A DNA stretch of 63,674 bases, filler included, from Hausera hauseri (taxonomy: Eukaryota), in NCBI GenBank assembly GCA_046269625.1. It is 11 parts of 11 records of this genome, joined end to end, with 100 filler letters (N's around TTAATTAATTAA, not from the genome) between each part and the next. Parts side by side here need not be neighbours in the genome. Positions count along the whole stretch, not along the records: positions 1 to 9,647 come from JBJURY010322161.1; 10 more parts are not named here. One strand, 5' to 3'. Below the pieces are notes generated by a model. The model saw only the letters and a program-made list of their open reading frames with translations. It was not told the origin of the DNA and ran no database searches. Positions 1 through 56,169 of the stretch are shown in pieces (within the stretch, counting starts at the first letter, position 1; each line of letters opens with the position of its first letter). The position numbers and the translations under genes are program-made.

Positions 1-1
1 C

Positions 2-883
2 GCTCCCAACAAGTTAACAGGGACAAATCTTGCAAAAGGAATTACAGACGATAAATTTCAAGACACCTCGTCGAAAGATATATACAGGCCAAAGGAAATC
101 GAGGCCTTCAGACAATTCCTTGCCTTTCCACGACAACGAACACATGAGCTAAATCGAGCTATGGCGTCTGTAGTAGACGATACACGATATCAGGCTAAAT
201 GGGAATCATTACTTGGTGTGAACCACTATCAGAGAGTGACTACCGAAATACTCTACAAAATCTGGGGAAGATTTCTGGTTTTCGGACAAGCAGCATCCGG
301 ATTCTTAGCGATATATTTTTTGATACAAATGATTAAGGCAGTCATCCAAACAGTAATAAACGGATACGAAATATTTACACTGACCGGATTCTCATGTAAA
401 ATTCTGACCGCAATCATAACGCCCTTTGGAAAATTTTTAAAGGCATACGAAGAGAGTAGGTGGAAATCAGACGTAGAACGTCATGTCGGATGTCACAACC
501 GTAAACGAAGAAAAAAGCCTATATTCTTACGAAAGCAAAAATTTACAAAACCTATTACAAAAAGGAATGATTCAGATGACGACGAGCCTAAGGGAGGAGA
601 AGCATTTTCAGGGATGAATAGACACAAGGTGTACTCTGTAGTTAAAGCGCCATTACCCATGTTAACCCCTACCGCTCCATTCTACGAAGATTGTGACAAA
701 CGATCTATGAGCTCATACCAGACAGAAATTTATAAAAGGACAATTAATGTAGAAGACCCTTATGAAGGAACGAAACGATACGGGATTTTACGGAAAATGT
801 GTTACCGTCAATCCGCGGATGACCTTAAGATGATATATTCACCAAGCGAACCTAAGAATATTGAAACAAGATCGTCAGTTTGA
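2..883 (+). CDS. Env-like glycoprotein C-terminal part (chuvirus G / class III-like), 5'-truncated
   Basis: Frame is open from base 2. It reads DIYRPKEIEAFRQFLAFPRQR..LN, then WGRFLVFGQAASGFLAIYFLIQMIKAVIQTVINGYEIFTLTGFS (TM region), then a basic tail. This resembles the C-terminus of chuvirus-derived glycoproteins. Confidence 0.65.
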   Translation, partial: APNKLTGTNLAKGITDDKFQDTSSKDIYRPKEIEAFRQFLAFPRQRTHELNRAMASVVDDTRYQAKWESLLGVNHYQRVTTEILYKIWGRFLVFGQAASGFLAIYFLIQMIKAVIQTVINGYEIFTLTGFSCKILTAIITPFGKFLKAYEESRWKSDVERHVGCHNRKRRKKPIFLRKQKFTKPITKRNDSDDDEPKGGEAFSGMNRHKVYSVVKAPLPMLTPTAPFYEDCDKRSMSSYQTEIYKRTINVEDPYEGTKRYGILRKMCYRQSADDLKMIYSPSEPKNIETRSSV

Positions 884-961
884 GACAACCCAAGGCTAAA
901 AATCTTCCAACATACTGAACTACATACTAACAATCGGTAACCGCTAATTAGTACTCATGAA

Positions 962-1858
962 ATGGAAGAATTGCACGTGGAAAACAATGAATTATATCCA
1001 AACGTGGAGTTAAGGCAGTTGTCGGGAAACATAATATCCGCCCCAGAAGTAAGAATAAACGGACACAAAATATCAGTGACTAAACATTCGAAAGTGGCAT
1101 CAAACTGTTTTGGAACCGTGATCGAAGAAAGACCCTTTACCAAAATTATTATTGAAGACTGCAGAGTTTATGCGTTAATCGATACGGGTTCCGAGATGTC
1201 TTACATAAAAAATAATTCAATATCTCAAGCGCTAAGAGAACAATTATATCCGCCGTCTACGAAAGATCCAGGTAGTACATGAGCTTTTGGCCAAATGTCG
1301 AAACCAATATTTAAATGGAACCCACAAGTCTAATTGATTGGACCAACATTTCGGCACGAATTTGCAATCATGGAGCAATTACCTGATGATGTCGTTCTAG
1401 GATGCGATTTACTGAAAAGGCTACCAAATATAGCAGTCGACTTACAAACAGGAAAGCTAATTGAAATTAGACCAAACAACGGCGTGAAAAATGCTAAGAA
1501 TAGAAAATTCGGAGAAGTGTGGATACCAGTAGACGAGAACATCCCACCGAGAACAGAGATAACAATTTACGCACAGATTCAGCAAGATGACGATCAACCA
1601 GTATACTTTGAACCAAAGGAAACATTAAATCCAAATATAATACTCAGTAACGTACTTACGAGAGTACACTACGGTCGTGTGCCGATCAGAATAGCGAATA
1701 ATGCACCAACTCCTATCAAACTTTATGCTTATATCACTTTAGGGGGCACGTATAGAGTATCGTCGATAACTATTGAAGAGAAACCTTATAAATATGCTGA
1801 ATTTCCGTCTCACGTTGAAACCAAGTTTTCACCTGAGTCTTACTGTCGGTTCTATTAA
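962..1858 (+). pseudogene. Retropepsin aspartic protease plus spacer domain
   Basis: ALIDTGSEMSYI and VVLGCDLL motifs. Same frame throughout, with stops at 1280, 1331 and 1856. Confidence 0.85.
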
Positions 1859-3240
1859 CTATTATGTCGATATAAATCGATTATTGCTAAGGATGAAGAA
1901 GATATTGGTAGAGCGAAAGCATTAAAGTTGACTATTCCGCTCAAGAAAAAACCTGGTTCAAATGAAGAAATAGATCTAGAGGATCAGAAGATGCCGAAAT
2001 GGTACCCTCCACCGCATTCGCTAAGACCCGAGATAACAAAGGAAGTAGAACGAATGCTAAAAGCCGATATAATTAGGCCTAGTTATAGATCCTGGTGCTC
2101 GCCTATCCTTATGGTTAAAAAGAAAGGCACTACGAAACACCGATTTTGTATCGATTACAGAGCTCTAAATAATCTTATGATAAAAGATTCCTTCCCATTG
2201 CCTTCAGTAAAAGAGGCCTTAGACAGACTTTCAGGACCAAAATGGTTTACCACTCTGGACTTACAATCCGGATATTGGCAAGTGGAAATAGAGGACGAAG
2301 ACCGTTATAAGGCAGCATTTAAGACTCACGAAGGTGTTTACGAATTCAATGTTATGCCGTTCGGTATTACTACCGGGCCAGCCATATTTACAAGAACGAT
2401 GAACAAAATGTTAATGGGACTGGATCATGCCTTTGCATATTTAGATTATGTGATGATAGCATCAAGAAGGGAGGAAGAACACTTAAAGGATATTGAACAT
2501 ACGCTGATGCGTTTGGAACAGGTCGGATTGAAATTAAATCCAAAGAAATGCAAATGGGGTCAAAATGCAATATCCTACCTTGGCCATATAGTTGGAGAAG
2601 GAGGATCGAAACCAGATAAATCGCTGTTGAACAAAATATCAGACTGCATGGAACTACAAAATCAGCAAGAATTAAGGCACTGGTTAGGACTTTGTGGGTA
2701 TTATGCAACTTATGTGCCGGATAATTCGAAAATCAATGCACCTTTATATCGCTTACTTAAAAAAGGAATCAAGTGGAAATGGACAGACGTCGAACAGAAA
2801 GCCTTCGACGAAATGAAGAAGATATTGACGAGTGAACCTGTTTTGCAATACCCAGACTTTAACTTACCCTTCGTAATTAAGACCGACGCCAGTAAAGAAG
2901 GCATAGGGTATGAATTAGCACAAAAAAGAGAAGGTGAAGAATTAGAACATCCAATTGCCTACGGAGGACGTTCCTTTGAAGAAGGCCGAGAAAAATTATT
3001 ATGTTACCGAATTAGAAACTCTTGCTGTAAAAGAAGCACTTCGACATTTTAACGTTTATGTTTACGGGCAGAAAATCATAATTGTCACTGACCACAAGGC
3101 CGTTACGACTTTAAAGGGTCGAGCAAATAACCCAACATGCAGACTAAATAGATGGATTGAAGAAATCTCCAGATATAATATTGAATTTCAGTATAATCCA
3201 GGAAACAAACATGTAGACGCAGATGCACTATCAAGATTAA
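1859..3240 (+). pseudogene. Reverse transcriptase / RNase H
   Basis: Motifs RFCIDYRALN, LDLQSGYWQ, MPFG, YLDY (mutated YxDD), TDAS, ELETLAV and VTDH. Frameshift near 2975. Confidence 0.95.
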
Positions 3241-4724
3241 AGACTAAAACAAGCACCATTACCGTAATGAAGAAAAGTCAACTTGAGGAAATAATAGACC
3301 GCCAACGCACGTTAGCGATAGATAGGACAATCAAGATCTCAACAGAACAGAGAAAGGATAGAGTTATCCAGCAGATTATAGAATTTGCTAAAAAGGATAT
3401 TATACCAAAAGGACGACAATTAAAGAAACATTTACACAGACACGGACACAAGTACTGCGTCTTAAATGACGGAAATGAAAGAGACATTTTATTTTACGAA
3501 CGGAAAGGAAAGAAACTGATAGTTATTCCGAAGAGTTTACGAACCGAAGTATTGATGTCAGAACATGATTCATATTTGGCCGGACACATGTCCTGGAAGA
3601 AAACCTTAGAAAGAATAATGAATAAATACTTCTGGCCTAGCATCTATATTGATGTAAAAAATTGGGTAAATGCTTGTGAAGTGTGTGCAACCAAACAGAA
3701 AAAGACGAAAAACTACATGGCCGAGTTAAAACCAATTGACGTGCCCGATAGGCCCATGCAGGCCATGTCGATGGATATCGTAGGACCTCTTCCTACGACT
3801 CATAAGAACAATAAATATATCTTAACATGTATTGATCGCTTAACTCATTTTGTCGAATTGATCGCACTGATAGATCAAAAGGCCGAAACTTTGGCAGAAG
3901 CCGTTGTAAGGAGAATTATTTGTCGATATGGGCCTCCAGATCAGATACTCACGGATCGAGGAAGAAATTTTACCAGTGAATTATTTGAGAAAATCACTAA
4001 AATATTCGAAATCGAGAGATTAACCACTACTGCATATCATCCTCAATGTAATGGAATGGTCGAACGGATGAATGCTACCGTCATACGTATACTGTCGACA
4101 GTAGTGGCTAAGGACCAAAAAGATTGGGACGAATTTTTGGAAGGAACTCAATTTGCAATTAATACCACACCACATCCAGCGACAGGATTCACACCATTTT
4201 TCATGATGTATGGACGTGAAGCTGTGTTGCCCACGGACTTAGGAATGACGCCATACACAGTTAATCCCGAGGACTTAGAACAGAATTTTGCAGAAGTGTT
4301 ACAAACGCGATTGCAAAAGTGTTGGGAAATCGCTAAGGAACTATCCCGAGAATATCAAGAACAGTTCAAGAAGCAATATGATACGAGAGCAAAACCGCAT
4401 GATATAGAACAAGGAAATTGGGTTTATGTGCATTACCCAGCCGCTAAGAAAGGCACCTCACTAAAATTGACTCGTACGGGTAGAGGACCGTACGAAGTTA
4501 CAAAGGTTACTTCAACTACAGTGTATATCAACAGGAATGGAAAAGAAGAAGTTATGTCAGTACAAAGGGTTGTCAGTACAGAAATACGACCCAGAAAACA
4601 TTATAATCTACGCCAACGGGAGATAAAATCTTCGTCGATAGTTACTAGACCAATATTATATGTTCAGATAGTCTTAGCATTATCGTTGATTGCCTCCTAC
4701 CTCCCGAGAACACAAACCCAATAG
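3241..4724 (+). CDS. Integrase with a hydrophobic signal-peptide-like C-terminal extension
   Basis: HHCC zinc finger (H..GH..CEVC), catalytic motifs MDIVGP, TDRGRNF and NGMVER, and GPY. Ends YVQIVLALSLIASYLP. Confidence 0.93.
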
Positions 4725-6062
4725 TAGCACGATAAATCATTGTTAGGAGACATATACGGAATTCGGAAGAGTGGATCGAAATAGGAAACTACCAAGACGG
4801 AAGAAGCCAACAGCTGAAGAAATTCAAAAACAAGAAGATACGAAATTATTACAATTGATGACAATTTACTATTACATGCCAAACGCAGTATGCGTTGGAT
4901 TTAAAGCTTGGAAATCGCATCACGATTTCGGAAGATTTCAATTTTTCTTACTTGGCACAGTCACAAGAAGAACGAAAAATTGAGATTTCGAGCCTGGAGA
5001 AAATACGCAATGTTGCGATATAGATTTGGACACACTTATAATCTCACCTACCGTCTATACTTGCCAGACTCAACTGAAGTTTACGTTGAAGTAAAACCAC
5101 ATTCTCAATTAGTCGTTCCTGCATGGAACAGACATCATGGAGTAAAACTGAATGAAATATTACGGTCTACTGACCCAGATATAAGGATATTAGACGAAAA
5201 TATCCAGGGAATCTCTGTGGATAAGGAAAATCAATGCATTCAAGTAGACGCTAAAATAGGATTGGCTTTCAGCCAGGAAATTAATATCACATTTGAAGCC
5301 ACAGTCGGACCGACATCGAAAATAGAATATTGTTCTATTCAAGCAGGTGTGCAAAAACCATGCTGCAAAATACCCACAAACTAAGAATTCAAAATCAGAT
5401 TTGATTTATATGAAGTACGGCCAAATAAACCAAGTATACAATTAAGAACTTACTATCCAGAAAATAGAATTTGGAAAAATTCAGTGGAGATGACCACCAG
5501 AAGACCAGCTACTCAAATTAATGCTAATACGTCAACCATTACGTCGGCCACTGTGCCTAAAAAAGAATTAGGGAGTATCACTGTTAAATGTTCGGCATAT
5601 CGATCTAAGATTGTGTTCTTCGTGGAAGAGAAACAAAATTACGATATATACATAAGTTGTCGGACAACGTATAATAATCAAGTTGTGACGTTATTTAAAA
5701 GTACTTATCAAACAGAGTGCAACTTATTGAAACCACAAACCGAATATATAGTACAAATGCATGCGGAGAATAAACAGAACCAAACTATTACATTGAGTAC
5801 CTTAGGCGAAATTCGTGCCGAGTCGCATGTATATGAAGATATGGATGAGGAAATCACAGTTCTAGTTACCACACAAGTGCCAGTGAGATTAACTACACTA
5901 CCGATTATATCCATCTCTGTACTGTCTGTGTTCATTCTCATTATATTAATTGCAATTTTTAGGCTAGTTACCATAAACTGCTATTCTAAGCGTTCTAAAA
6001 ACTCAGAGTGGGAATTAAGGGAACTGAAAACCTCTGTTGACCCGTATGATAAAATAACCTGA
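4640..6062 (+). pseudogene. Putative type I membrane protein (Cys-rich domain, Thr-rich stalk, FN3-like domain, TM)
   Basis: ORFs 4908 and 5484 are in the integrase frame. Contains NQCI, EYC, CC, the FN3-like LKPQTEYIVQMHAEN, and TM ISISVLSVFILIILIAIF. Homolog at 23440-24736. Confidence 0.6.
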
Positions 6063-6129
6063 CAACTACAGAGCGGGTTATTTTATCATTTAACAAAGAA
6101 TTGGTTTAATTTTAAAACCATCCTTTGTC

Positions 6130-6163
6130 GTAAGATTAACCCTTACTGTTTATTTTTAGACAG
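6130..6163 (+). promoter_or_regulatory. Putative splice acceptor before the cargo ORF
   Basis: TTAAC...TTATTTTTAG directly before the ATG at 6164. Conserved in copy 2 (24848-24869). Confidence 0.5.
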
Positions 6164-8770
6164 ATGAGTAAAGAAAGAAATACGAAAACGAACACCGGAC
6201 AACCTAGGATCGACAGATCACAATCTACCCACAAGCCGGAACACTGTAGTACCGATGAATCGCCAAAACGCCGAATTAGTATCGACAAATTCTTGCAGAA
6301 TTATGCTACCGTCTTCCTCCCAAATTCTAAATCAATATATAGAGAAATACATAACGTATTACTTGAGAAAACCACCGTAAAGTATGATCGAACCTGTCAA
6401 ATTCCTAACAACCTAAAGGGTATAAGGGAAGAAAATAGGATTGTTTACCTCTACGCCATAAGAGAAGACAAAGATCTTCGAGGATACTTACTTAAACAGA
6501 TGATCACATACGCGAATAGACAGACTATTTATATCCATCTGACAGACAGTGAGATATATTATCGATTTAAAGACCAAGAATGGAACACAAACGAAGGAAG
6601 ACAATATAGATTCAGTACACTTAGCTTCCGTAGCCAAGATTTGCAACATTATGAGTTAAAATTCAGAGTAGCCGCCCTTCCCGTAAAAATAATGTTCGAG
6701 GTGACGCACGACGGTTACCAATATGTCAAATTACCACCCCTGAAGTTTTACCAACAACCGTCAGAAAAGGATTTGGACACATTCCTACAATCGTATAGAC
6801 TAGTGAAGGATGACAGAAATACCAGGATCATAGCAATTAATTGTGGAGAAGCAGACAATGCACAGAAAATCCCAATGGAAGTGTCAGTCCGAGAAACGAA
6901 CGGAACGGAGGTATATTGTACAGTCATCAGCCCAAGAAAACAAGTACGTGAGACGTATTATGATACGACAGGAATTCTCAAGGAAACACTCTCGAGAGGC
7001 AGAAACATGAAGCTTGTTCAATCCGAATTAGAACATTGTTTATATTGATATATTATAACAGGGTATCGCATTGATAACATTGTTGAACTATTAGAAATAC
7101 CCGTATCAAGCATCGCAGGAATGCGGGAAATAGGATCACACCCAGTAGTCGCCGAACAAAGTAAACGAATACTACGAGAAAGAAATTACCCCGCACCAAA
7201 AGTTATGGACTCCTATTTCAAATTAATGGTCGATGCCATGAACAGCGAACATGTTAAGATTAGCAAACTATTAACAGCAAGTCAGCGCACTCGCTACCTG
7301 CGCGACATATATGTAGCCTTAAAATGGGACCATGAGTAGACACCCAATAATCCAGAACAAAACCTACGAAGTATAACCGAACCGGAAAATATAAATAAAA
7401 GGTATGGGAAGCAGTATCGTTCATATTCCCCATGGAGAATTGTGGAACCGATGGGACGCGATAATATCAAAATAATTATTGAAAAACCAAGTCAACTGTG
7501 TACAGAAGTACCAAGTACCAGTTATAGTTCCTACGTCAAACCAATTCCAGAAATCAAATCCATAAGCAAAAAAATACAAACAGCCGAGATATTCAAAGTG
7601 CCCAAAATTCCACCGAAGAAGCAGAAAACTGAAACACAAATTTCTTCGATCAAAAGAAAATTATCCCTCTACGATTACTTGTTCAGAAAGAAAAATAAAG
7701 GAACAAACCCGAACCAAGTTTAAGAGAATCGACCCGATAAAACAAACAAAGAACCCGAAAGGTCAACAACGTCCGCCGACAACCAGGTAACAAGTCTAGA
7801 AAAACCCAGGAGATCGACATACAAACATAAGAACCCAGAAAGTGGATTTCAACAACTGTTTACGGAAGTTAACATTCTCAGAAAACGGAACTCCCAAGAA
7901 GATGTTCATTTTGCGACAACCAAAGATAATCCAAGGATATTAATAACAACTGAGTATTATAGTCGCCAGACGATCAAAGAAGCAACGTTTTTTGTAAAGA
8001 CCACGCCAGCTCGAGAAGTATATAAAAATACCTACATTTGGGAAAACCCTAAAATAGGGAAATACATCGTGCCAGTTTTCCTATCAAAGAGAAACGGCAA
8101 GCTAACAGTGCCAGTAGATAAACAAATGAAACCTTTGTTGAAAAGACAGTATCAAAAGTATAAAACGGATGGCGAAATTCCCGATTTAGATCGAGATACC
8201 ATTGCCAATTGGATATTAGTACCAGTAGGTTGTGACCCCAGGAAGAGTTCTGTAAATCCCAAACAAAAAAGAATCCATGGTTACCTATATTAGGATAAAG
8301 ATGGTCTCATATTCGAACCCATAGAGCTTGTAATAAAGGTAGATTTAGATGACGAGAGATGGGATAAAGAGGAAAACGAATGCCCATTATGTGAAGCAAA
8401 TCTCAGTCAAGGATACGTTATTTTGGATAACCGCGATTGTCGACATAAATATTGCAGAGATTGCTTGGAAAAATAGACCCTAGATAATGGCAAAACTACC
8501 TGTCCGGTGTGTAGAGCCGAGGAAACTGAACTTAAATATTTTTCAAACGGTAGTTATACCCGTGTAGTTCGCATAAGGCCCCATTACAGTTATGAATTAG
8601 AAACGAATACTAGAGAAGAAGATCAAACTAGTACCAGTTCTGGGCCCAGTTTAAGACAACGAATGGAATTACTACGAGACCCTCGTCGCCGCTGCACCTC
8701 TCCTGACGCAATGGGCACATCCGAGGATGCCGTTCAGGCTGAGAAATGTTGTAAAGACGTCTATAATTAA
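6164..8770 (+). pseudogene. Cargo ORF: DEDDh/REX4-ISG20-like exonuclease fold plus C-terminal C3HC4 RING
   Basis: ORFs 6164, 7121, 7442, 8069 and 8507 share one frame and are broken by single stops. Exonuclease-like part: RIIAINC..EVSV..NG..VISP..TTGI..VQSELEHCL..IITG. RING (8381-8512): CPLC..CRHKYCRDC..CPVC. Confidence 0.7.
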
Positions 8771-9562
8771 GAAGACGTCCAAGTTATAAATAGCGTTATA
8801 ATCAGAATATTGTAGATATTTATTATTTTACGATATTTGCTACTATTGTACGAAATTAGGAATTTGTACAAAATTAAAGAAGAAATTTAGCAATAAATTG
8901 ATATATTTTTAGAATTTTTGAAGAAAAGGTTGAATTTGTATTAATTTTTAAACCAGAAAATACCGAAAATTCAGTTAAAATTGATTATAATTCCAAGAAT
9001 AAATCAGTCACGTACACAGTCGTATTACTGTATAAACTAGCAGGTTTTAGAACAATGTGAGTTTTTGTGAAGCCACTGAGCTTTAAACCTGCGAAAAGTT
9101 GTCTTGATTAGATTGAAGCTATTGGAGACTATTGTACTTCCTTAGAGACGTGAAGCCGAAATACTATATTGCCGAAAAGAAGAGGATTCTAGAAGCTGCC
9201 AAGGAGCACAAATTCAGAAAACTAGTTGTTGATTTCGATTTGATACGTGGAGCATTGTGTAATTGTTTGGTATAAATATATTGTTTATTGTAAAATTCTT
9301 ATATAGTTTTTCATTGCCCCTTAAGGGTAATTTGACGACATTAAGGTCTTATAATTCACTGTAAATTATATAGGTAAGAGGAGAATTTATAATCATTTGC
9401 AAAGGATCGCAAGCAGTACACGCACTACTGATTAGTTAAATTGATTTAAGGTACATTCTGTCTACGCGATTACGGTAGACCTCACCTGTGTAAAATATTA
9501 CCTTCAAGTGTAACTATTGTTATATAGATGGAGTTGTATAAGGGCCACCCCAGTATATAACA
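8747..9562 (+). repeat. 3' LTR of copy 1 (~816 bp)
   Basis: TG...CA ends with an imperfect inverted repeat, preceded by a short purine tract. Shares motifs with the copy 2 LTR (GCAGTACACGCA, ACATTAAGG, AGGGCC). Unrelated RT sequence follows immediately. Confidence 0.75.
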
Positions 9563-9647
9563 AATAGCATCGTCGAATGTTCAACAACATTTGAACGATT
9601 TACAAGATTTATTCGACAGATGCAAAATAATGGGTTTAAAAATAAAT
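9563..9647 (+). pseudogene. RT fragment of another LTR element (insertion target)
   Basis: Translates IASSNVQQHLNDLQDLFDRCKIMGLKIN, the segment that follows YxDD in RT. Confidence 0.7.
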
Positions 9648-10983: not shown

Positions 10984-13900
10984 AATTTTTTCATTGATTT
11001 GCGCCCACCAGTGTGACCATTTTTTGCGCATATGCAGACCCTTCCTGGCTCAAACCATTTTTCATTTTAAAGGGTTTTTAAGCTTAACATCTTTGGATAT
11101 TCCTTTATCCCAATCATCACGTGCCACCGCTAGCCCGGCTATGCACTCGAACCGCTTTTTAACCCAAAAGGTAATCGCCCAAGCCCCCAGCTCATTTCAT
11201 CGCTCCCCTGGGATGACCTCATTACATTTATCTTTCCTGGTCTTTAGCTACAATCAACACATTAAAACCTTACAAGCTCCACTCAACGAGACAGCACAGT
11301 TCTTATATAATGCTTTATCCGCATCACATAACACTTCTGATTTTTATTTCACATATCAAAGGCTTATAATACATCCTTCAGACTCCTTTTTGTCTTTCGT
11401 ATTCCACGAGCTTTCAGACACCTGTCTCATGCTCCATTCTGGCCTACGGGTGGATCGGACTCCGATCCTTCATATGCGGAAAACCTCATTAAGACCAGAT
11501 CTGGTCGTCGTCCTGCCGACCCCACACTAATTACATCTCCAAATCTCTCTTGCACAGATTTATTTCTCGAAAAGACAAATTCGAGTCGTACCTGGTTACA
11601 ATTCCATTTGCAATGGCTTAAGGCCAATCATATCACAGATTCCTTCTTGTGGACGAACAGTTTGTTGCTACTACTTACAGTTAATATCAAGCAGCAAATC
11701 AATAATCTCGCCGACATACTAACCACTACAAATCCTATATGATATGCTTTATGAATCAGTTCTGCACATTACCGACCTATTATTGAAAGCATAATTCAGA
11801 AATACTTTAATGAACATGCCATCGAAAATCAAAAACCATCGGATTTCCTTAAAACTGCAATGTTTCAACTGAGTTCGTTAGGCATCACTCCTATAAACAA
11901 TGACAATCTTCTTCGTCAGTATTTTCTTTCATCCTTGCCGACCTCCATCAGAGCGCTGCTCACTGTAGTAAACGAGTCAACAGCCTTGAAAAGCTCGCCT
12001 TATTGGCAGACAAAAGCTTTGACATTTTGCAGTCTAATAGGTCGCAATTAGTAGCTGCAGCAACCGCTTACACACCTTCACACACAGATAGCACTTCATT
12101 TTCACAACAATTGCAAATGATGCAGCAACAGTTTGACGAGTTACAGTCGATTTTGGCCATTACTACCCAACTAAATAATCTTAATGGGCCTCGACAAAGT
12201 GAAACCAGGCCTTTAAGGAAGAGAAGCATTTCCAGACACTTTGCTCGATTCATGTCACCTGGCGGACGCATGGCTTGTTTCTATCACATGCGATTTCGAA
12301 GGGATACTAGGAAGTGCTTTTTGGGTTGTCGGTTCTATAGAGAACGGTACGCTGTGGACAACCCTATTTGTGTCTACCACAATAAGTTCCAGTCACAGGC
12401 TAGATCATGCGTGTCTGGTTGTAAACATTACAACGATAAATCTCCTCGCTTTTCTTCGTCTTCTTCCTTTTCTCCAAAACATTCAAAAACTAATAATGCC
12501 GCCAGATTTTACGGCACATTCTGGCGCAGGCAATATCGCTCAATCTTCTAGCCGTTTCAACACCGCCTCCGCAGTCTTTCTATTGAAAGCTGTACTGTTA
12601 TGCAGAGATACTTCACATATCAACTTCCTTATAGACCCAGGAGCTGCCTTTTCGCTCCTTCCCTTGTCCTTCGTTCTTACATCGACTATGATTTCCTGTC
12701 CACCGCTTTTCACTGCCAGTGGTCAACGGTTGCACGTTGCAGGAACCACGGAATTGACTTTTACATTCACCAACTTGCCAGATAAGTTTATCTGGAAGTT
12801 CCACGTGGCCAACATTAAATCTCCCATTATAGGCTCAGATTTTCTTGCGCCCCCATGATCTATTGGTCGATTGCAAATACAGCTGTCTTTTAAGCAGGAA
12901 CGCAATTGCAACTCCAAACATGTGGCTGGTAGAAAACTTAGCGAGCAATTCATTGCACTCATCTGTGAACATGTTGAACGCTTCGTCATCTATAAAAACG
13001 TCCGATAAAGTCGGTAATATTTCAATTAACAACAATCATAAATCTATTCTAAAACAAAAATCCAAATTAGCCGTCGACAGTCGCGATGCCAGTTGCTTTT
13101 CGTCAACCACTGGAGCTGTTCTCTCTAATGATATGCCTCATGCATTCTTATCTCTACACTCCGACCTTAAATCATATGTCACAACGTCTTTCTTTCGCAT
13201 AGTTAAAAGGGACGTCAACTTCTAGCCTCCATCCACAACTTATCATCACATAGTAACAGAGCATCAGAGGCCGATCAAACAAAAGGTCAGATCTTTGTCA
13301 CCACGCAGACGTAAAGCTGTTGAACAGGAATTTAATGAACTGGAAAGGTCTGGCATTATTCGGAGATCGAATTCACCGTGGGCCTCTCCTCTTCATATAG
13401 TGGTAAAGAAAGATTGTACCTATAGGCCATGTGGCGACTACCGACAATTAAACAATCTAAATATTACAGATACCTATCCACTACCACTCGTTAAAGATAG
13501 TCTTCATAGCCTCAACAACACCAATGCCTATTCTACCATTGATCTGAACAAGGCCTACCATCAAATTCCTGTTTCCCCTGATGACATTCCAAAAACTGCT
13601 GTCATCACACCATTTAACCTTTACGAATACATCTTCATGCAATTCGGCCTACGTAGTGCATTTCAGACCTTTCAGCGCCACGTTGACACCGTTCTTTCTT
13701 GACTAAATTTTGCTCACCCATACATAGATGACACATTAGTCGCTTCCAGCTCCAGCAAAAAACATCATGAGCACCTTAGAATCATTTTCCACAGATTACA
13801 TCAAAACAACCTGCAAATTAATTTCGCTAAATGTAATTTCTTCCAGAAACGCGTTAACTTCTTAGGCCACATAATTACTCCCGAAGGGCATTCGCCCCAG

Positions 13901-14288
13901 CCTGATCGCTTGCAACAATTAACAAATGTGACGTTGCCAACTATTACTACCGATATGATGAGTTTTCTAGGGTCATCGCATTTCGTACACAAATACGTGC
14001 CACAGTGCTCCGAACTAACGGCACCTTTCGCACATCTCTCATCTGGGAAGAAAAGATAATAAATCCATTGGACTCCCGATCTAGTAAACCAATTTGATCG
14101 CCTTTGTGAAGGTCTGAAAACTGTGGAAATCTTGGCCTTTCCAAAGCCAAAAGCTGAACTAATATTAACTACCGATGCCTAAACCACAGCAACTGGTGCG
14201 ATATTACACCAAATATACAATCGCGTCAATGAACCATTAGAATTCTAATCCCGAAAGCTCACTCAATCGGAAAGCCGATACTGAATAT
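10969..14288 (+). mobile_element. Degenerate Ty3/Gypsy element (gag-pro-RT-RNaseH start)
   Basis: gag: KPSDFL..YFLSSLPTSIRALL and two CxYHxxF..CxxGC motifs. Protease: FLIDPGA, IIGSDFL. RT: SPWASPL, RPCGDYRQLN, YIDD. RNase H start: TTDA. Many stops and frameshifts. Confidence 0.9.
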
Positions 14289-15358
14289 NNNNNNNNNNNN
14301 NNNNNNNNNNNNNNNNNNNNNNNNNNNNNNNNTTAATTAATTAANNNNNNNNNNNNNNNNNNNNNNNNNNNNNNNNNNNNNNNNNNNNGGGAGAAAACAA
14401 AACCTTGTAATGCAGACGAGACACATCCTGTGACAGATGAAATCTGATCCGTCCTTCTCTGAGGACGTCTTTGTCTCCCTGGACCCGTCTTGCAAAATGT
14501 GGATCCTGAGACTCTGACACCTCAACCCCTTCGTGGACCCGATACAGGACTGCCTCTGACAGAGTCTAACAAACTGCAGAGAATAAACAGGTCTGTCCAG
14601 GATCTGTCAGGTCTGCTAGTGAAGGTTCATTCCAGGGTGATGTTCTGGTTCTCCTCTGCCTGATAGGAGCTCTGGCTCACATTCACTACAAATGTTGCTG
14701 CTGGAGAGACGAATAGGGAAAGAGAGGATCAGAAACACTAAGAATTGGAACTCGTCTACAGAGACCAAAATACCACAAGAACTGAATATTTCTTTGGAGT
14801 GAAACTGAAGGTCCAAACTGCCCACAGATATGAGGGGAGGATGAGGAGCAGCAGCAGCTTCATCCTGGGAGAGGAGACACGACACATCAGGTCAAAGATC
14901 TGCTGGACTCTCACAGTTTTTATTGATTGTTTTGACGCAGCCTTCAACTCAAAATCCACATTTTCAAAACAGTTAACGCAGAGCCTGGAACAGTGCCACA
15001 GTGGTCAAAACACAACATTTTGTTTGCAAAAGGCACTAACTCTGGCAAAACATTTAAAATATGGAACAAAGGCAAATTTTGCCTTCAACCACTCAACTTT
15101 GACACAACTTTATGAGCACCTCCAATCAGTCATTACACACCGGGCAACAAAATACAAAACGTTGGTTACGTATTGTAACCCCAGATTCTATGAGTGTAAG
15201 CGTAGCCCTCTAAGGCTGTCGCTGATGGGTACCCCCCGCGCTCGCGCGCATTCTGAAGAACCAATAGTCTACGCCCACGTACCGTGTGGCCCCACCTACG
15301 GTCCCCTTAAAAAGGCAGACCGGACCGGAGGTCAGCTCCCTCAATTTTCTTCAGCTTC

Positions 15359-16795
15359 GTGACCAGTAGCTACGAAACCACAAGAAGGATGTCAACGAGG
15401 ATCTGCTCCGCCTGCGGCGTCGGCTTTATGCTGGCCAGCGACCTGCATGTGGTGTGCGAAGGCTGCCTCGGCGCCGACCACGCCAACCAGGCTTTGGCAG
15501 CGGACGCTGCCTGCCGGGCTTGCAGGAAGCTCTCTTTGGAAGAGAAGCAGCGGCGAGTGGAGTTCTTCGCGGGTCAAGACGAAGGCTTCGACCTTGGTGA
15601 CGTCGACGAAGACCTCTTCTGTTTCGAACCGGAATCGGATGATCCCGCTTCGGACAGAGAGGACGAGGAGAGTGGCGGTCCGGTCCCCCCCTCTCAGGCG
15701 GGAGCGCGGGATGCGGGCCCCCGAGCGGAGAACGAACCTAGGGAGCTAGGTCTTCCCCGTTCCACCACCACCTCCTTACCTTCCATCGGTGCGCTTGTCG
15801 GCGCCCTCCCGGACATCATCCAGCGGGCAGCGGACGCCAGAGGCCTGGCGGTCCCTGAAGTATTGGCTCCCCCACCGGACGAGCTGGCGGGCCAGTTCGC
15901 GTCTCCCCTTGCTGGTCGTCGGATGGCGGTCTGGCCGCAGTTCCCCGTGGTCCAGACCTACTTGGCCTCCGCCAACACCGACCCCACCAAACTCCGGGCT
16001 CCGGTGTCGACCTACGCGGACATAACAAAGGTGGAAGGGATGACCAACTCCGGTTTCCCGCCGGTTCCAGGATTGGAACCCGCGTTGTCCAGAGTGTTCG
16101 GCGTGGAAGCGGTCAGGTCCGCCGGACGGCGGCCTGTCCCTCAGAACCCGGCGGACCAACAACTTGTCAACTGGACGGACAGGTCCCACCAGTGTGCGGC
16201 GCAGTCGGCGGCCGCTACCAACAACATCGCTCTCCTGGCCTTCAGCATTTCTAAAAGAGCGGCGGAGAGCGACGCCCGGCAGGAGGAGAAGATGGAGCTC
16301 TGTGCGGCGGCGGACACCATTTTGAACCTGTGTGCTGCACAGGCAGTGTGTGCCTCCCGCATTATGGCATGGATGAATCTGGTCCAGAGGCAGATGTGGC
16401 TGCGCCAGGCTCCGTCCATCTCAACCGCCATCCAGAAGCAAATGTTGGAGGGCCCTATCACTCCTGACGGTCTCTTCGGCCCTCAGTACCAACAGCTCCT
16501 GGAACACATCAACACCTCGCAGACGGTGCAGGAACAGTTCCAGCAGTCGCGGTCCAGACCGGCTCATCGTCAGGCTCCGGCCGCTGGGAATTGGAAGGAT
16601 CGCCGTGGACACCGGCAGCAGAACCGGCGGGTTCATTCCTCTGCGCCTCGGCCTCCTTCAGCTCCGGCACCGGCGACGGTGACTGCGACTCAACCCCGCC
16701 CACAGCAGCAGCGAGCCCCCCGGCGTGCGTCCGGGCAGCTGGCGTGCACTTGGTCCAACCCCTCTCCTCCACCACAGAAGAGGCAGAGGAAATGA
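15359..16795 (+). CDS. DIRS ORF1 (gag-like)
   Basis: N-terminal CSACG..H..C..CLG..H..CRAC, plus GLFGP. Typical ORF1 position. Confidence 0.8.
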   Translation: MTSSYETTRRMSTRICSACGVGFMLASDLHVVCEGCLGADHANQALAADAACRACRKLSLEEKQRRVEFFAGQDEGFDLGDVDEDLFCFEPESDDPASDREDEESGGPVPPSQAGARDAGPRAENEPRELGLPRSTTTSLPSIGALVGALPDIIQRAADARGLAVPEVLAPPPDELAGQFASPLAGRRMAVWPQFPVVQTYLASANTDPTKLRAPVSTYADITKVEGMTNSGFPPVPGLEPALSRVFGVEAVRSAGRRPVPQNPADQQLVNWTDRSHQCAAQSAAATNNIALLAFSISKRAAESDARQEEKMELCAAADTILNLCAAQAVCASRIMAWMNLVQRQMWLRQAPSISTAIQKQMLEGPITPDGLFGPQYQQLLEHINTSQTVQEQFQQSRSRPAHRQAPAAGNWKDRRGHRQQNRRVHSSAPRPPSAPAPATVTATQPRPQQQRAPRRASGQLACTWSNPSPPPQKRQRK

Positions 16796-16810
16796 CTGGC
16801 GGGGGGGGAA

Positions 16811-20338: not shown

Positions 20339-20860
20339 TGCATTGTGTTTGAAAAGGAAGATGAGACAACAGCAGACAACCCCCGGAACAATTATTCATG
20401 CATAATAAGTTCCTTACACACTGGGGTTTTTTCGTTTATTATGGATTCATGAGATGTCACAGAGATCTATGTGTAACAAGCTGATTTGTTCAAACAGAAT
20501 CTACTGTGATCATCATGTGGTGTGATACATCACTGGGGGTGTAGAGCGGAATTCTGTTAAGCCGGCGAGGCGCGGACTACATCGGGCTCCGCCTCTATAC
20601 CCATCAGCGACAGCCTTAGAGGGCGGAGCTTACACGAAATAGAACGTTGGTTACGTATTGTAACCCCAGATTCTATGAGTGTAAGCGTAGCCCTCTAAGC
20701 GCTTGGCCTCACCGGCTTCCAAAGCTGAAGAAAAAGCTTTTTCGGGAGCTGATCTCCGGTCCGGTCTGCCTTTATGGGGACCATAGGTGGGGCCACACGG
20801 TACGTGGGCGTAGACTATTGGTTCTTCAGAATGATTGTTCCGTTTCTTCTTCTTCTTTAG

Positions 20861-22170: not shown

Positions 22171-23618
22171 TACAACAAATTATGAAGTTCGTTGATACTA
22201 ACAAAACGCCAAAGGGTCATCAGTTACGGAAACATCTACGACGATATGGTCACAAATACTACGTTGCTGGAGATTTGAACCACGGAAACGTGTTATAATA
22301 CGAACGAAAGGGACGAAAGTTGGTAGACATACCAAAAGGATTGAGTACAGAAGTACTAATGGCCGAGCACGATTCGTATTTAGCCGGACACATGTCGTGG
22401 AAAAAGACCATAGAAAGAATCTCGAATAAATACTATTGGCCGAGCATTTACATCGACGTGAAAAATTAGGTGAGTACTTGTGAAGTGTGTGCAACCAAAC
22501 AAAGAAAAGTGAAAAACTATATCGCCAAACTTAAACCTACCAACGTGACCGATAGACCAATGCAAGCAATGTCTGTGGATATTGTATGACCGTTACCTAC
22601 GACCCACAAAAGCAACAAATATATTTTGACCTGTGTAGACCGATTGACTCATTTCGTCGAGCTTATAGCGTTATTAGACCAAAAGGCCGAAACCTTAGCA
22701 GAAGCGGTAGTCCGGAAAATTATTTGCAGATATGGGCCACCCGAACAAATCTTGACAGACCGAGAAAGGGACTTTACGAGTGAATTGTTCGATAGAATTA
22801 CCAAAATTTTTGAGATTGAACGACTAACTACCACAGCTTATCATCCCAATGTAATGGAATGGTCGAGCGGATGAACGCGACCATTATACAAATCCTATCG
22901 ACAGTAGTCGCAAATGACCAGAATGATTGGGATGAGTTCTTAGAAGGGACACAATTCGCCATCAATACTACCACGCATCCTGGACAGGATTTACTCCGTT
23001 TTTCATAATGTATGGCAGAGAAGCTGTACTAACTACAGATTTAGGATTGATTCCTTACACAAAGAAAATGGAAGATTTGGAACAGAATTTTGTCGAGGTA
23101 TTACAAGTGAGATTACACAAATGTTGGAAAATAGCCAAGGAAGTATCTAAAAAACACCAAGAACAGTTTAAGAGGCAATACGACAAAAGGTTAAGCCACA
23201 CGACCTGGAACCAGGGAACTGGGTCTACGTGCACTATCCTGTAGCAAAGAAAGGCACATCTCTTAAACTCACCCGGACAGGCAGAGAACCTTACGAAGTT
23301 ACCAAAGTAACATCAACCACAGTTTATATAAATAAAAACGGCAAAGAAGAGGTCATATCGATTCAGCGAGTAGTCAAAACGAAAATAAAACCAAACAAAT
23401 GCTATATTTTGCGTTCGAACAAAACAAATGAAGAAAAGAAAACGTCGTCGATAGTAACCAGACTAATATCGTATGTACAAATAGTCCTCACCTTATCGTT
23501 AACCGCTTCATATATGCCCAAGGCAAAGTTGACAACTCAAAGAGAGAAATTGCAATATGCGGCGAAACGAAAAGATATCCAAAACTTACAGTCACTTAGA
23601 GTAAACGATATGGATTGA
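22171..23618 (+). pseudogene. Integrase (frameshifted)
   Basis: CVDRLTHFVELIALLDQKAETLAEAVV, MYGREA and YVQIVLTLSLTASY are nearly identical to copy 1. Confidence 0.92.
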
Positions 23619-24736
23619 AGCAAACCATGTGCGTGGATCGAAGCAAGTGAACCCGTTCAGAGCTACGTAAAATTTCAAATAATATTTGTAACTAGATATA
23701 TGATGAGAACATGTGATTTCCGTACGGATATCACAAAAGATGTTGGTATTTGTATTTTGGACAAGCCTACGGATACAGGTTTCAAATGTTTTATTCCAAT
23801 CAGTTTGGAGCTCAAGCTTATATAATTACAGAACTCGTAATAAGAACGCCCCAACGAAAGGACGCAAACCAAACCAAGACGGACGAAATAATCCGAAGCA
23901 CTGACCCGTTTAAAAGACTCTTAGATTATAATATTATGGGGATTTACAAGGACTTAAAGAATCAATGTATACGAATTGAGACCAGAATAGAGCTGCCTGG
24001 AGACAGACAAATATCTGTCCGATTTATACCACTGAATGCTTCGATCCCTACTCCAGAGTATTGTTATCTGGCCAAACGCCGATCTACTACGTGCTGTGTA
24101 ATACAACTAGGACAGGATTATCAGTTACAATTTGACTTGTACAATACGTACTCTGGAGAACAAAGCACTTATTTAAGAGGATACCGTCCGAAAATCGGAA
24201 GATGAAAGCTTTCCTTCTCAGCCACTACGAGAAGACCATCTACAGTTCCAAGCACAACTCTCACTACCACGATCGTCACTTCAGACGACATGCCAGAAAG
24301 CATACCAGTTAAGATTTTGTCAAAAAGCAATAGAATTCTATTTTACGCTGAAGAGACGTTTAATCGAGACGTCAAGATCGAATGTCCCACCCTGCACACC
24401 AACCAAGTTGTGATCCTGAGAAAGAATAGTCAGGAAACTAAATGCAAGTCATTACGGCCGCAACATGACTACATAGTCAGAATCACCGCAAAGGGTAAGA
24501 ATCCTAAAACTTATACAGTGCGGACTCTAGACAACCAGATCGAAGTAATGCAGTATAGAGATCTGAGTATGCAAAATGTTTTGACCACAAAGGGGTCCGT
24601 TGAGCCAAACAATTTACCGACGATCGCTATATTAAGTTTGTCAATTTTCGTTCTTGTCATATTAATGGCGATAATTTTTCTAGTTTCCAAAAATTGTAGT
24701 AAGCGCTGTAAAAATCGGAAGGGAGATAAAGGATAA
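23440..24736 (+). pseudogene. Type I membrane protein homolog of 4640-6062
   Basis: RSTDP, NQCI, EYC, CC, FDLY, a Thr-rich stalk, LRPQHDYIVRI, and TM IAILSLSIFVLVILMAIIFLV. Confidence 0.6.
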
Positions 24737-24879
24737 AAGGGCACCGAGACGGACCTTATAATAGCATAACCTGACAACTACAGATCGGGTTATCCTATCA
24801 TCAGACAGAGAAAATGTTTTGCTTTAAAACGATGATCTGTCTTAGGATTAACCTTTATTTTTATTTTAGCAAAGTAAGT

Positions 24880-27309
24880 ATGGCCGAGAAGGCGAAGAAT
24901 TCAGCAGTCAGTCCCAATTTCGATATCGATGATTTCCTACAGCAGCACGTCACTGTTCTCAAGCCACTGTCCAAAAGTCTATACCGACAAATTGGAGAAA
25001 ACATAAAAAACCGGAACTATTTAGAATTTGACCAAGAGAGTAAAATACCAAATGGACTAAAATGGGGCTTAGAAGAGAATCGACTGGTTTGATTATATGC
25101 CATGCGAAATCCAAAGAATGCACGGGCATACCTTTTAAGAGACCTGATTCCATATGAGCCGACACATCAGCAATTGCACGCACATGTCGCTGATGGAGAA
25201 ATTCAGTACAGGATCGTAGGACAGTCCTGGAGTACACAAAAGGGACAGAAATGAAAGTTTAGTACCTACGAGCTATGTTGCTATAGCCTCATGAATTACG
25301 CTCTAGAATTTCGGATCGCGGACCTTCCGACCAAAATCATGATCGAGATGACGTTGCGAACGGAGGTAATGAAGCCACTACCACCGTTACCATATATACA
25401 GAAGCCATCAGAAGATGAGATAGAACAAAATGGGGAATCCTACAGATTAGTTCCAGACGGTAGAAACACCCGGATATTAGCCGTAAACTATAGAGAAAAG
25501 GATGACGGATGGTATGTTCAGATTGAGGTCTTTATCAGAAATACTAATGGAGAAAAGATTATAAATAAAATAATCGCACCTCGAGCTAGGATAAAGGATA
25601 CTTTCCCCGACGTTACAGGAATTACGAAAGTACAGCTCGAAAAAGGAAAAGATTTCTTGGAGATCCAAGAAGACATAAGCCACTGTTTCTATGGATATAT
25701 TGTCACCGGATTCCGAGTGCACAAAGCGTTGGAGCGACTATGAATTAGGCAAGAGTACATAGCCGGAATACGAGAATTGAGCCGAAACCCAGCCGTTGTG
25801 AGCCAAGTAGAAAATACCTTGATGTGGAAAAGAGGCTGCCTGCTTCCGTCAGCATCGCGCGAATCCCAATTTAAGATGACAATAGAAGCCATGAATGGCG
25901 AACGATTCAAATTTCCTCAGCTGATGTCAGCTAATCAACGGACCAAATTTATAAAAGATATTTATGACTCGTTACGATGGGACCACGAGTGGAAAGCCAG
26001 AAACCACATGCAAAATGCAACATCCGACAACAACCCCAAAGTCCTGATACAAAAATTCCGAAAAGGGTTTAGTGAATACCCTGGTTATCGACAAATCGAA
26101 CCCCGAGAACATAACCGATTCCGAGTAACAGTTCCGAATAATCCAATAGAAGCCCCTAACAGCCGACAAAAACCGACGACCAGTCAAATTCAAAAATAAT
26201 CAATATCAGATAACCTGGACAATTCAAGAAAGCAGAAGACAAAAACTTCCTTCCTGGAATATATTAGTAAAAAAAGAAGCAAATCTAGTAAAAATCAAAC
26301 AGACGAGAATAAACGAACATCCGGCAGCCAAACCCCGAAGGAACCGATAAATGACCCAAAGGAAATATCATACCAACGAGAATCTAAAGAAAATAACGAA
26401 AGTTGATTAAGAATTACCAAAACAGGAACCTTTAAGACAGAAGTCAACGTTCTTTGGAAGAACTGGGAGGAAGATACCCCAATTATAGTTACAGAATTCG
26501 GCCAAGTGAAAGAATACAAAAGAATCCTCGTCATGGCCGAATATTATAGCAAGGGAAAAATCAAAGAGGCTATATTTTACGTATCTACCGTTCCTAGAAG
26601 AATAGTAAGCGGAAATGCATATGTCAGAGAAGATACCACTATTGGCAGATATCTAGCCGCAATATTCCAGTCGAAGAGCGGCACTAACAGATTGACGATT
26701 CCCGTGGATACCCAAGTTAGAATTCAATTAAAAAGACAATACAAGAAGACTGGAGTACTCGATTTGGATAAACAAGAAATAGTCGAATGGACCCTAGTCG
26801 CGGTATCCGACGATCCGAGAAAAAGCTCAATAGACCTCAATCAAAAGAGATTGTACGAATACTTGTACCAAGACAAAAAAGGACTGGTATTTGAGAGAAT
26901 AGAAGTGGACAAAAACTTTGTGGACATTAATGCATCTGAAAAAGAAAAATGTCCCGTTTGCGATGCGGATCTCTATCAAGGATTCGTAGTATTGGACAAC
27001 AAAAATTGCAGTCACAAATATTGTCGGTACTGCTTAAAAACGTGGACACTGAAAAATGGGAAAACGACCTGCCCAATATGCAGAGCCGAAGCTACCAGGC
27101 TAAGATACTACTCAAATAGAGAAAATAAGAAGATAGTAGAGATACTACCCGAACAGGCCACTACGTCCTATCCTTTTGACTTACAATCGCCGTCGAACGA
27201 ATCGGATTCAGAAGTGGACTTACGCGGACGAATGGACCGATTGCGCGGCACCTCTACTGACGCACTGGGCACATCCGAGAGTGCCGTTCAGAGAGGAGAA
27301 ATGTTATGA
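24880..27309 (+). pseudogene. Exonuclease-fold plus C3HC4 RING cargo ORF, copy 2
   Basis: ORFs 24814, 25291, 25777 and 26506 share one frame. Exonuclease-like part: RILAVNY..IIAP..VTGI..IQEDISHCFYGYIVTG. RING (26950-27081): CPVC..CSHKYCRYC..CPIC. Confidence 0.72.
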
Positions 27310-28086
27310 GATGGCAGTAAAACAGAATTATACATATGTAAATAATAGCGAAACTGAAAAACGAAACCGAAAGTGAAACCGAAACTAACTAAAAATGAAA
27401 AATTAATATTATTTAGAATTAACCAGTGAATCTGTAAATATGAAAATAGTTTATTGGAACGCAAAATTATTTATTATTCTTGAAATACGGAAAGAATTAA
27501 ATGAAAATAGCAGAAAATTATTTGTAAATAATAATGGGAAAATAATTGCTTATGACTGCCAATTATATAAGGCAGTACAAAATCAGTTACCCGAACATTA
27601 GTGAAGTTGTAAGTTGGCATTGATCGAGCTGTTGGAAAAGCTCAGAGATTTAATTACTTTTCGAATTATTGAAACGATATTGCAGTTGCCGAGCTAGCAG
27701 AAGCTCCGAGATATCCGACATTTGTGAAGAAGATCTCAGTTAACATTGAACTTGAACGATTGTAGAAACCTTCTTGACGACTGTATCGTCTGGTATATAT
27801 TTGTTTATTGTCAATAAATTTGTATTCTAAAATATTCTTATAGTTTTCTGTCGCTCCTTACTAGGACCTTGTACCACATTAAGGATTAAAATCACATTAA
27901 ACTTCATAATTAAGTTGAGAATTTGTAAACTATGCAAGGCACCGCTCGCAGTACACGCATTTTAAAATAGTGCAAACATTCTAACGAGAACGTTAGGACT
28001 TATCTGCTTATAATCACTGTTTTAAACTTAAGTTTCAATATTGTTATAGTTGGGTGTTGGATAGGGCCCACCTTAAACTACTAACA
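27302..28086 (+). repeat. 3' LTR of copy 2 (~785 bp)
   Basis: Preceded by the PPT AGAGAGGAGAAA. Ends TGTTA...TAACA. Contains TATA-like and AATAAA motifs, and motifs shared with the copy 1 LTR. Confidence 0.75.
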
Positions 28087-28846
28087 TACCTTTTGATATA
28101 TCATTTTCATCACCCAACTGACAATTTTATCATAATTATTTCTGCTAGNNNNNNNNNNNNNNNNNNNNNNNNNNNNNNNNNNNNNNNNNNNNTTAATTAA
28201 TTAANNNNNNNNNNNNNNNNNNNNNNNNNNNNNNNNNNNNNNNNNNNNATAATGCCAGTGAATAATGTTTCAGCCACTGCATTACGCATTTGCGTAAGTA
28301 AATTTTAGTATAGTACATGTGATTTATGCTATTTTTAGGCATACACTACATTGTTGTACAAACAAGGCTCAAGCAACAAATGCTTATTTGACAAACCATC
28401 ATCATAAACTGACTTGGGAAGAATATAATACCTAGTTTTGCAGAGATTGCCTTATGCGGGATATTGGGAATATATGTGATATAAATGAATCCATGTTCTA
28501 TGTCAAAGATCATGCCGATGGGCAAAAGAAGATATTTAATAGCATAATTCCAGAATTGCAAATATATGCATATGAATGTACCAAATTGGTAAGTATACCA
28601 AAGGACATTACATGCATTTATAGTGAACATGGTTCACATTTTGCTTATAAAAAAGTGTTTAGCGTTATGTCAAAGTTATATTGTTACTAAATAAATCTGT
28701 TATGAAATTAGTTGATCTTAACCTATATAGTAGTTACTTAGTTTTATTTGGCCTTATTCTATATTTCACATTACCTGATCAAGAAGACAACACAATATTT
28801 TCATACAACATTTATTAAACAAAAGAATAACAATGAATATCAATAT

Positions 28847-31800: not shown

Positions 31801-32540
31801 AGTCCAACCGCTCTTCTTATCCTGCCTTTCTTCGGCTTCGCGGATGAGCCTTGTATAGTCTTCAGTAATGAAATCCTTAATGTTAAAGGATTTCAATAGT
31901 GACCTGTTCTTTGTCTTGAAGGCTCTATTAGACAACTCTCCTTTGACGTTGATAAAGGTGGCTTCCAATTTTAAGTTCACTTTAAGGGTCTTCAGCTCCA
32001 ATAAGTTGTCCCGGAGAATTCCTGATGCCTCCTCCTTTGAATATTTCAGCAATTCTTGGAGCGGTGTCTGCCCCACTGTGGCTATGAAGTATCGCCGCAC
32101 TTTGCACTTCACTGCATCTGCTTCAACCGGCCGCCATCATTGGCTTTTGAGGGATCATTTGCTGCTACTTCTGATAGGTGTTTTGGTCCTGAATCTGGCT
32201 GTGGTACTGCAGGCAGTGGTACTGAAAGCTGTGGTACTGCAGGCTGTGGTACTGTAGGCTGTGCTGTCAGAGCAGGAAGCTGCTCATTAAATATGACCTT
32301 CTTTGGCTTTGAATTGAAGTCTGTCAAATGGGCAATATGATCTTTATAAAACTGCCTGTATTCCCTATTATATACAGTCTCACATCCTGGGCAAATATAA
32401 TACAGGACTCTATTAAATTTGTATCCATAATATCTCCTCAAAGTATTATGACAGTTCTGAGGCTTGTGTATTGCACATGTGCAATACACATATGAACTGC
32501 ATCCTTGATTTTGCTTAGGTACGAAAGTCGTTATTGACAT
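28847..32540 (-). pseudogene. Polinton/adintovirus-type protein-primed DNA polymerase B relic with an endonuclease VII-like domain
   Basis: CYVC..HFTGAYRSAACNNCN, FHNLSGY, KGVFPYDY, GIRGG, NNLYGYAMS, KLYNNSVFGKT and YMDTD. Fragmented. The Cys-rich ORF 32109-32540 may be its N-terminus. Confidence 0.88.
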
Positions 32541-56084: not shown

Positions 56085-56166
56085 CCACCACCACCACCAC
56101 CACCACAACCACCACCACCACCACTACCACCACCACCACAACCACCACCACCACCACCACCACCAT
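56085..56166. repeat. (CCA)n microsatellite
   Basis: Direct inspection. Confidence 0.95.
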
Positions 56167-56169
56167 CAA

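Follow-up and report, generated by a model that had tools for sequence, protein, structure and literature searches.

A decayed Ty3/gypsy-type copy in Hausera hauseri with a chuvirus-like envelope fragment in frame upstream of protease and reverse transcriptase

The stretch of Hausera hauseri DNA analysed here (63,674 nucleotides, filler included; hereafter the window) consists of several contigs joined by N-linkers. On the first of them, 1-9647, sequence resembling a viral fusion glycoprotein precedes the pol domains of a retroelement. The question raised by this locus is whether glycoprotein and pol were once parts of a single polyprotein and, if so, in what kind of element.

Envelope fragment, linker and pol domains

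Between positions 2 and 3049, stop codons in frame +2 start only at 881, 938, 1280, 1331 and 1856, with dozens in each of frames +1 and +3; about 68 would be expected by composition in these 991 codons (P(<=5) = 6e-24). This count confirms what a preliminary description had noted, namely that the ORFs from 2 to 2975 share frame +2 and are interrupted by five point stops. Near 2975 the frame shifts from +2 to +3, in which the rest of RNase H and the integrase are read. The domain order in the window is thus the C-terminal part of env, a linker without gag, PR (protease), RT (reverse transcriptase), RH (RNase H) and IN (integrase), all on the plus strand. With its five stops, a shift of frame inside RNase H and an RT motif that has degenerated, the copy on 1-9647 is dead.

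The C-terminal part of a chuvirus/gB-type envelope glycoprotein was located at 2..481 (+) by its match to PF24664, its likeness to the polyprotein P0126 and its hydropathy. The contig start falls inside env, its 5' end is lost there and what remains of the glycoprotein is roughly its final quarter; Gag, the start of env and the LTRs are absent from the window. The translation of 2-880 matches PF24664 (Monjiviricetes_fusion) with residues 21-160, covering profile positions 472-612 of 653, at E 4.5e-21 and 74.9 bits against a cut-off of 27. Hydropathy reveals a hydrophobic stretch at residues 91-119 of the same translation, the membrane anchor at about 272-358. Furthermore, the fragment shares 29% identity over 144 aa (E 2e-22) with the env of the intact polyprotein P0126, and both this homology to a full-length PF24664 env and the PF24664 match itself identify it as HSV gB/chuvirus-type. 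The proposal that a chuvirus-like fusion glycoprotein lies upstream of protease-RT in the same frame is therefore borne out by the profile match and the domain order. Two structure models, with pLDDT values of 34.5 and 34.8, were unusable, and the former, a mean for the env fragment of a relative, did not confirm a class III fold; the window lacks the greater part of the ectodomain. Weak matches to Borna disease virus G in P0122, P0126 and P0147 are no more than a lead toward mononegavirus glycoproteins.

Env anchor and protease are connected by an in-frame linker of about 215 codons, a predicted cytosolic tail, at 482..1123 (+), which includes the stops at 881 and 938. Over 482-1160 frame +2 has two stops, where the remaining two frames have 14 and 21 (P = 1.7e-5), and since the linker is stop-poor in frame +2 only, it was coding too. 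Pfam assigns it to no family up to E 5, which agrees with the earlier remark that no gag lies between the transmembrane/tail region and the protease, and no CCHC knuckle is visible in its translation. A short gag escaping recognition in this linker would give the order env-gag-pol, and ENV-GAG-POL elements with a short GAG have been reported from two mites in the excerpted text of PMC13524379; the linker, measured between motifs, is also longer (302 aa) than in three relatives (195, 260 and 246 aa), that is, by roughly 40-110 aa. This order is nevertheless extremely improbable in view of the two negative results just given and of the CCHC knuckle found upstream of env in the relatives P0124-P0127, P0135 (with three knuckles) and P0147. 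As a separate observation, two or three protease-like stretches follow env in P0128, P0131, P0133, P0134, P0135 and P0147; in the window, a short stretch at the end of the linker (1040-1120) resembles a protease N-terminus by eye only.

The retroviral-type aspartic protease occupies 1124..1423 (+), with LIDTG at 1175 and the stops at 1280 and 1331; its RVP match (E 5.8e-5) was obtained with X read at stop codons. The following spacer, 1424..2113 (+), contains the stop at 1856 and aligns by BLASTP with the same region of P0008; the stretch 1334-1855 matches no Pfam family. Downstream are the RT core at 2114..2593 (+) (RVT_1 E 1.1e-35), with a degenerate catalytic YxDD motif at 2438, and RNase H at 2780..3176 (+), whose RT_RNaseH halves lie in two frames on either side of the shift. 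The integrase, 3525..4721 (+), comprises an H2C2 region at 3525-3701 (Integrase_H2C2 E 2.6e-19) and a core at 3747-4043 (rve E 1e-15), and is continued, with no change of frame, by a signal-like hydrophobic stretch at 4635-4709. Of 18 solved RT relatives, the best two are 4ol8 (E 2.4e-58), which we take to be Ty3 RT, and 7q5b, titled Ty3-G Gag-Pol (E 2.7e-57). The nearest proteins found are 33-48% identical to the window pol. Judged by its PR-RT-RH-IN order, its Pfam set and the presence of Ty3 among the best solved RT relatives, this pol classifies as Ty3/gypsy type. A BEL/Pao-type pol with env downstream was considered and ruled out by the gypsy-type Pfam set and the upstream env; Pao, the class with which the element had initially been compared, gives way to Ty3/gypsy on the strength of that Pfam set and the Ty3-G Gag-Pol match.

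Stops in related contigs and intact relatives

Three coded sequencing runs (X1, X2 and X3) contain window sequence, and at 80% likeness 28,996, 2,098 and 347 of their contigs, respectively, were aligned, covering 30, 30 and 28 of 30 bins; 1%, 7% and 18% of these contigs run on into unlike sequence. X3 contains a small share of words only and was excluded from support, and the window itself may derive from X1. In depth units, which are not copy numbers, a sense codon was found at 881-883 in 429/440 of X1 (97%) and 19.8/19.8 of X2 (100%), at 938-940 in 2583/2655 of X1 (97%) and 42.6/45.3 of X2 (94%), and at 1280-1282 in 8193/8310 of X1 (99%) and 59.5/59.5 of X2 (100%). The codon readout covered these three of the five stops. 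Most related contigs do not share the stops at 881, 938 and 1280, and for most of them the query of the preliminary description whether 881 and 938 are absent in other copies is answered in the affirmative. No indel at >=60% occurs in the aligned contigs over 900-1345, and none lies before 2975 among the 12 listed of 66 indel rows, so that a common indel in 480-900 might have been missed. Linkage of env to protease in the sister copies rests on continuous tiling, as no single listed contig bridges the env anchor to the protease (the listed pieces there are shorter than 500 nt). Among the sequencing runs listed with window sequence there is no RNA run, and these data have no bearing on expression.

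Longer proteins related to the window were found by several routes. A search with the RT gave 984 matches, and among the 120 listed there was one protein with PF24664, P0008, which carries env-PR-RT-RH-IN in one ORF and is identical to the window at 26% of positions in env and 33% in pol. P0123, a member of the P0008 cluster, has a whole env from the signal peptide onward. Four proteins were retrieved with the env-protease region of P0008, including P0125 and P0126 and the gag-env part P0124. P0125 and P0126 begin with a region that bears a CCHC knuckle; a hydrophobic stretch, the full env with its anchor, and PR, RT, RH and IN come next, and after these another hydrophobic stretch and then an Ig domain. 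P0127 and P0131 are further intact env-PR-RT-RH-IN ORFs.

Searched by HMMER against 1.84 billion cluster representatives, the window env fragment yielded 206 matches at E up to 0.001, of which 150 are listed; 20 of these 150, picked for rank or length, were scanned with Pfam. Among the best 11 of the 206, an aspartic protease follows env in the same protein in 9 of the 10 scanned (P0136 was left out). The remaining one, P0132, stops after env, which is preceded by a weak Bcl-2 match (E 0.00096, below the cut-off). Additional env-protease fusions are P0145 and P0147. Free-standing glycoproteins of about 650 aa rank lower among the 150 listed matches, at E 1e-10 and above, one of them (P0237) with DUF5641 before env, and one protein of the 150, P0261, shows RT likeness before env, the usual order. 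P0138, a WD40 protein among the env matches, was discarded as spurious. A word-index search with the env ORF had found no such longer proteins among 851 candidates, and HMMER later did. The search for related loci found nothing in metagenome contigs and, with P0126, nothing in viral contigs; the phage contigs L001 and L002, whose ORFs are unrelated, were set aside because the hydrophobic stretch had matched them by chance.

These results bear on two other explanations of the locus. Env and pol might be adjacent in gag-env-pol order and yet be separate translation units, divided by a stop or frameshift that is conserved or expressed through splicing of a pol mRNA, with the shared frame incidental; the two stops between env and protease in the window copy fit such an arrangement, and the excerpted text of PMC13524379 treats GAG, ENV and POL as ORFs and allows ENV-POL gaps of up to 2000 nt. 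With both stops missing from 94-100% of depth in X1 and X2, a linker stop-poor in frame +2 only and a protease fused to env in nearly all of the closest env relatives scanned, we regard this as improbable. The glycoprotein could also be a separate nested insertion, either a chuvirus-derived EVE or the env of another element, beside an ordinary gypsy pol. Chuvirus-like glycoprotein genes do occur alone and in Pao elements (PMC7642597, excerpted text), many of the 150 listed env matches are free-standing homologues, and the window RT was unplaced in two trees. This reading is largely refuted and very unlikely to hold: one frame is kept across 991 codons, the best env relatives are env-protease fusions, the best relatives of the integrase are polyproteins of the same kind, and X1 and X2 each cover the full set of 30 bins, with only 1% of X1 contigs entering unlike sequence.

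As to kinship, the seven best of 100 integrase matches are P0008, P0123, P0005, P0125, P0126, P0009 and P0011. In an integrase tree of 35 rows, the two copies present in the window join the env-pol and FN3-tail polyproteins at 98/93; in one of 27 rows with P0127 and P0131 added, support is only 82/71. The RT trees (124 and 29 rows) leave the window as an unplaced long branch. The rows of the smaller trees were hand-picked to span the first tree. Kinship of the window pol with the env-pol polyproteins is likely but distant.

Altogether, the locus is very probably a decayed copy of a Ty3/gypsy LTR-type element with env in frame before PR-RT, the active form of which is likely to have been one gag-env-PR-RT-RH-IN polyprotein. 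The ancestral env-pro-pol polyprotein in a gag-env-pol element, as suggested at the outset, draws its support from the intact single-ORF relatives and from the three stops, both of those between env and protease among them, that most related contigs lack.

Predicted membrane protein, RING ORF and a possible two-glycoprotein design

Beyond the integrase, a predicted type I membrane protein extends over 4905..6059 (+), with an FN3-like domain at about 5583-5792 and an anchor at about 5877-5990; its frame is broken by stops and frame changes between 4722 and 4905 and by a stop at 5382. The post-integrase domain matches no Pfam family. A profile of the P0005/P0009/P0011 tails matches it in the two window copies (E 1.6e-4 and 1.4e-5, 381 targets) and has no significant match to P0127 or P0131, and in the ESM Atlas FN3 membrane proteins rank first (0.91, 169 shared features). 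In eight intact relatives a signal-like hydrophobic stretch follows the integrase and an anchor lies at the end, and in intact relatives this second membrane protein sits in the same ORF as pol. Its domain is Ig in P0123, P0125 and P0126, FN3-like in P0005, P0009 and P0011 (judged from the profile match with the window) and FN3-like by eye only in P0127 and P0131. In P0011, an FN3-like domain with signal and anchor was also observed before the protease (aa 36-237), where other members have env. A literature search found no mention of fibronectin type III domains in gypsy elements among the papers listed, a weak negative.

A separate ORF with five stops follows at 6140..8770 (+), with a weakly DEDD-exonuclease-like region at about 6737-7111 and a C3HC4-type RING finger at 8375-8515 (zf-RING_2 E 1.7e-6). 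With a two-copy profile, the former matches SDN1 at E 0.026 and ISG20L2 at E 0.57, and its first catalytic Asp is lost; for the ORF as a whole the ESM Atlas gave a best score of 0.89 and no usable lead. A second, diverged copy on another contig, 22171..28148 (+), comprises integrase, post-integrase membrane protein and RING ORF, without the 5' part. The integrases of the two copies are 73% identical over 1302 nt; the copies share 84% amino acid identity, with 27/12/95 differences at the codon positions, and only short 3' non-coding likeness. Because the second copy keeps the post-integrase protein and the RING ORF with differences biased to third positions, both were once coding parts of the family. 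The RING ORFs, with their possible inactive DEDD-exonuclease domain, are 42-53% identical between 6140-8770 and 24775-27309.

Other features were observed in the window. An ORF at 42092-42958, on an A-rich strand, has a RING-like motif and may belong to a related element as an accessory ORF; an unbroken ORF of 1385 aa at 49909-54018, with a RING finger at its end, presumably resembles listerin. By eye, 11750-14290 contains a different decayed gypsy-type element with gag-, protease- and RT-like frames, 15249-20833 a DIRS-type element with RT/RNase H and recombinase-like ORFs in overlapping frames and 63-nt inverted arms, and 29157-32136 (-) and 56028-58904 (+) fragments resembling Polinton-type protein-primed DNA polymerase B. 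The contig of the DIRS-type element has a GC content of 0.50-0.57, above the rest, and DNA from several organisms may be combined in the window. Besides, there are long collagen-type Gly-X-Y coding repeats at 59378-62700 and a tandem repeat with a 128-nt period at 40740-41507.

How the active element would have worked can be outlined from the topology predicted by the hydrophobic stretches of the intact relatives. With gag presumed upstream of the contig start, as in P0124-P0126, Gag would stay cytosolic, an internal signal sequence would send the env ectodomain into the ER lumen, and the env anchor would bring the linker and the pol enzymes back to the cytosolic side. A second signal after the integrase would then export the Ig- or FN3-like membrane protein to the luminal side, and the products would be cut apart by signal peptidase and by the protease that the element encodes. 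Env is predicted to let particles bud and fuse with other cells, providing cell-to-cell spread.

Fusogens of the gB type usually need an attachment or regulatory partner. It is tempting to speculate, though we think it rather unlikely, that this clade of gypsy elements encodes a two-glycoprotein polyprotein as in enveloped RNA viruses, in which a class III fusogen before pol would be partnered, for attachment or regulation, by the Ig/FN3-like type I membrane protein after the integrase. How gB-carrying errantiviruses enter cells is unknown according to the excerpted text of PMC13524379, and for this reason the post-integrase protein could matter more; if the proposal were true, this partner would be a candidate answer to that question.

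Comparison with known elements

Elements combining gypsy or Pao pol with such glycoproteins, or pol with accessory ORFs, are described in other animals. The mosquito Anakin elements are BEL/Pao elements with a chuvirus glycoprotein (PMC7642597, Dezordi et al. 2020); according to its excerpted text, they share with the window element the same Pfam glycoprotein family within an LTR element, but have a Pao pol, and envelope-like genes of BEL/Pao elements lie downstream of the polyprotein, whereas here env is upstream of a Ty3/gypsy pol. The LTR elements of bdelloid rotifers with an accessory ORF3 (PMC5408684, Rodriguez et al. 2017, in the portions excerpted) resemble ours in that pol is followed by accessory ORFs, some of which encode DEDD-type exonucleases or membrane proteins. 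However, their exonucleases keep the catalytic residues; in the window the likeness is weak (E 0.026), the first catalytic Asp is lost and a RING finger follows.

The layout itself has closer precedents. GAG-ENV-POL errantiviruses with a gB-type ENV were reportedly described by Sacco et al. in 2022, as cited by Chary and Hayashi in 2026. The latter authors' own article (PMC13524379, Chary and Hayashi 2026) places such errantiviruses, with HSV/gB-type ENV, in Nematoda, Bryozoa and Platyhelminthes, and they have in common with the window element a Ty3/gypsy pol, a gB/chuvirus-type env and the position of env upstream of pol. The main text of that article, as excerpted, makes no mention of an ENV-POL fusion or shared frame, of Ig or of fibronectin, and its figures and supplements may bear on ORF fusion. 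Unlike these published elements, the window copy is defective.

In the planarian Burro (GYPSM1) giant gypsy elements, env lies in frame between gag and protease (PMC6431247, Arkhipova and Yushenova 2019). By the excerpted account, the Burro env matches mononegavirus fusion glycoproteins and belongs to one polyprotein, and in the window env likewise precedes the protease in frame. Burro exceeds 30 kb, with an ORF1 of about 5000 aa carrying Bcl-2, BIR, MATH or ankyrin and with extra ubiquitin-related domains (PMC6431247). Among close env relatives of the window, P0132 with its weak Bcl-2 match and P0135 with its three knuckles show Burro-like traits; no Bcl-2, BIR, MATH or ankyrin family was found by Pfam in the window's downstream ORFs, its 5' part being absent. 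The window element differs in its membrane protein after the integrase and the RING ORF downstream, Burro being compared by description only, and is not assigned to Burro. The layout, which the preliminary description had called unusual, is uncommon indeed but was already published (PMC6431247, PMC13524379), and the window adds a divergent member. The single-ORF gag-env-pol form spans at least nine 50%-identity clusters and is not confined to Burro.
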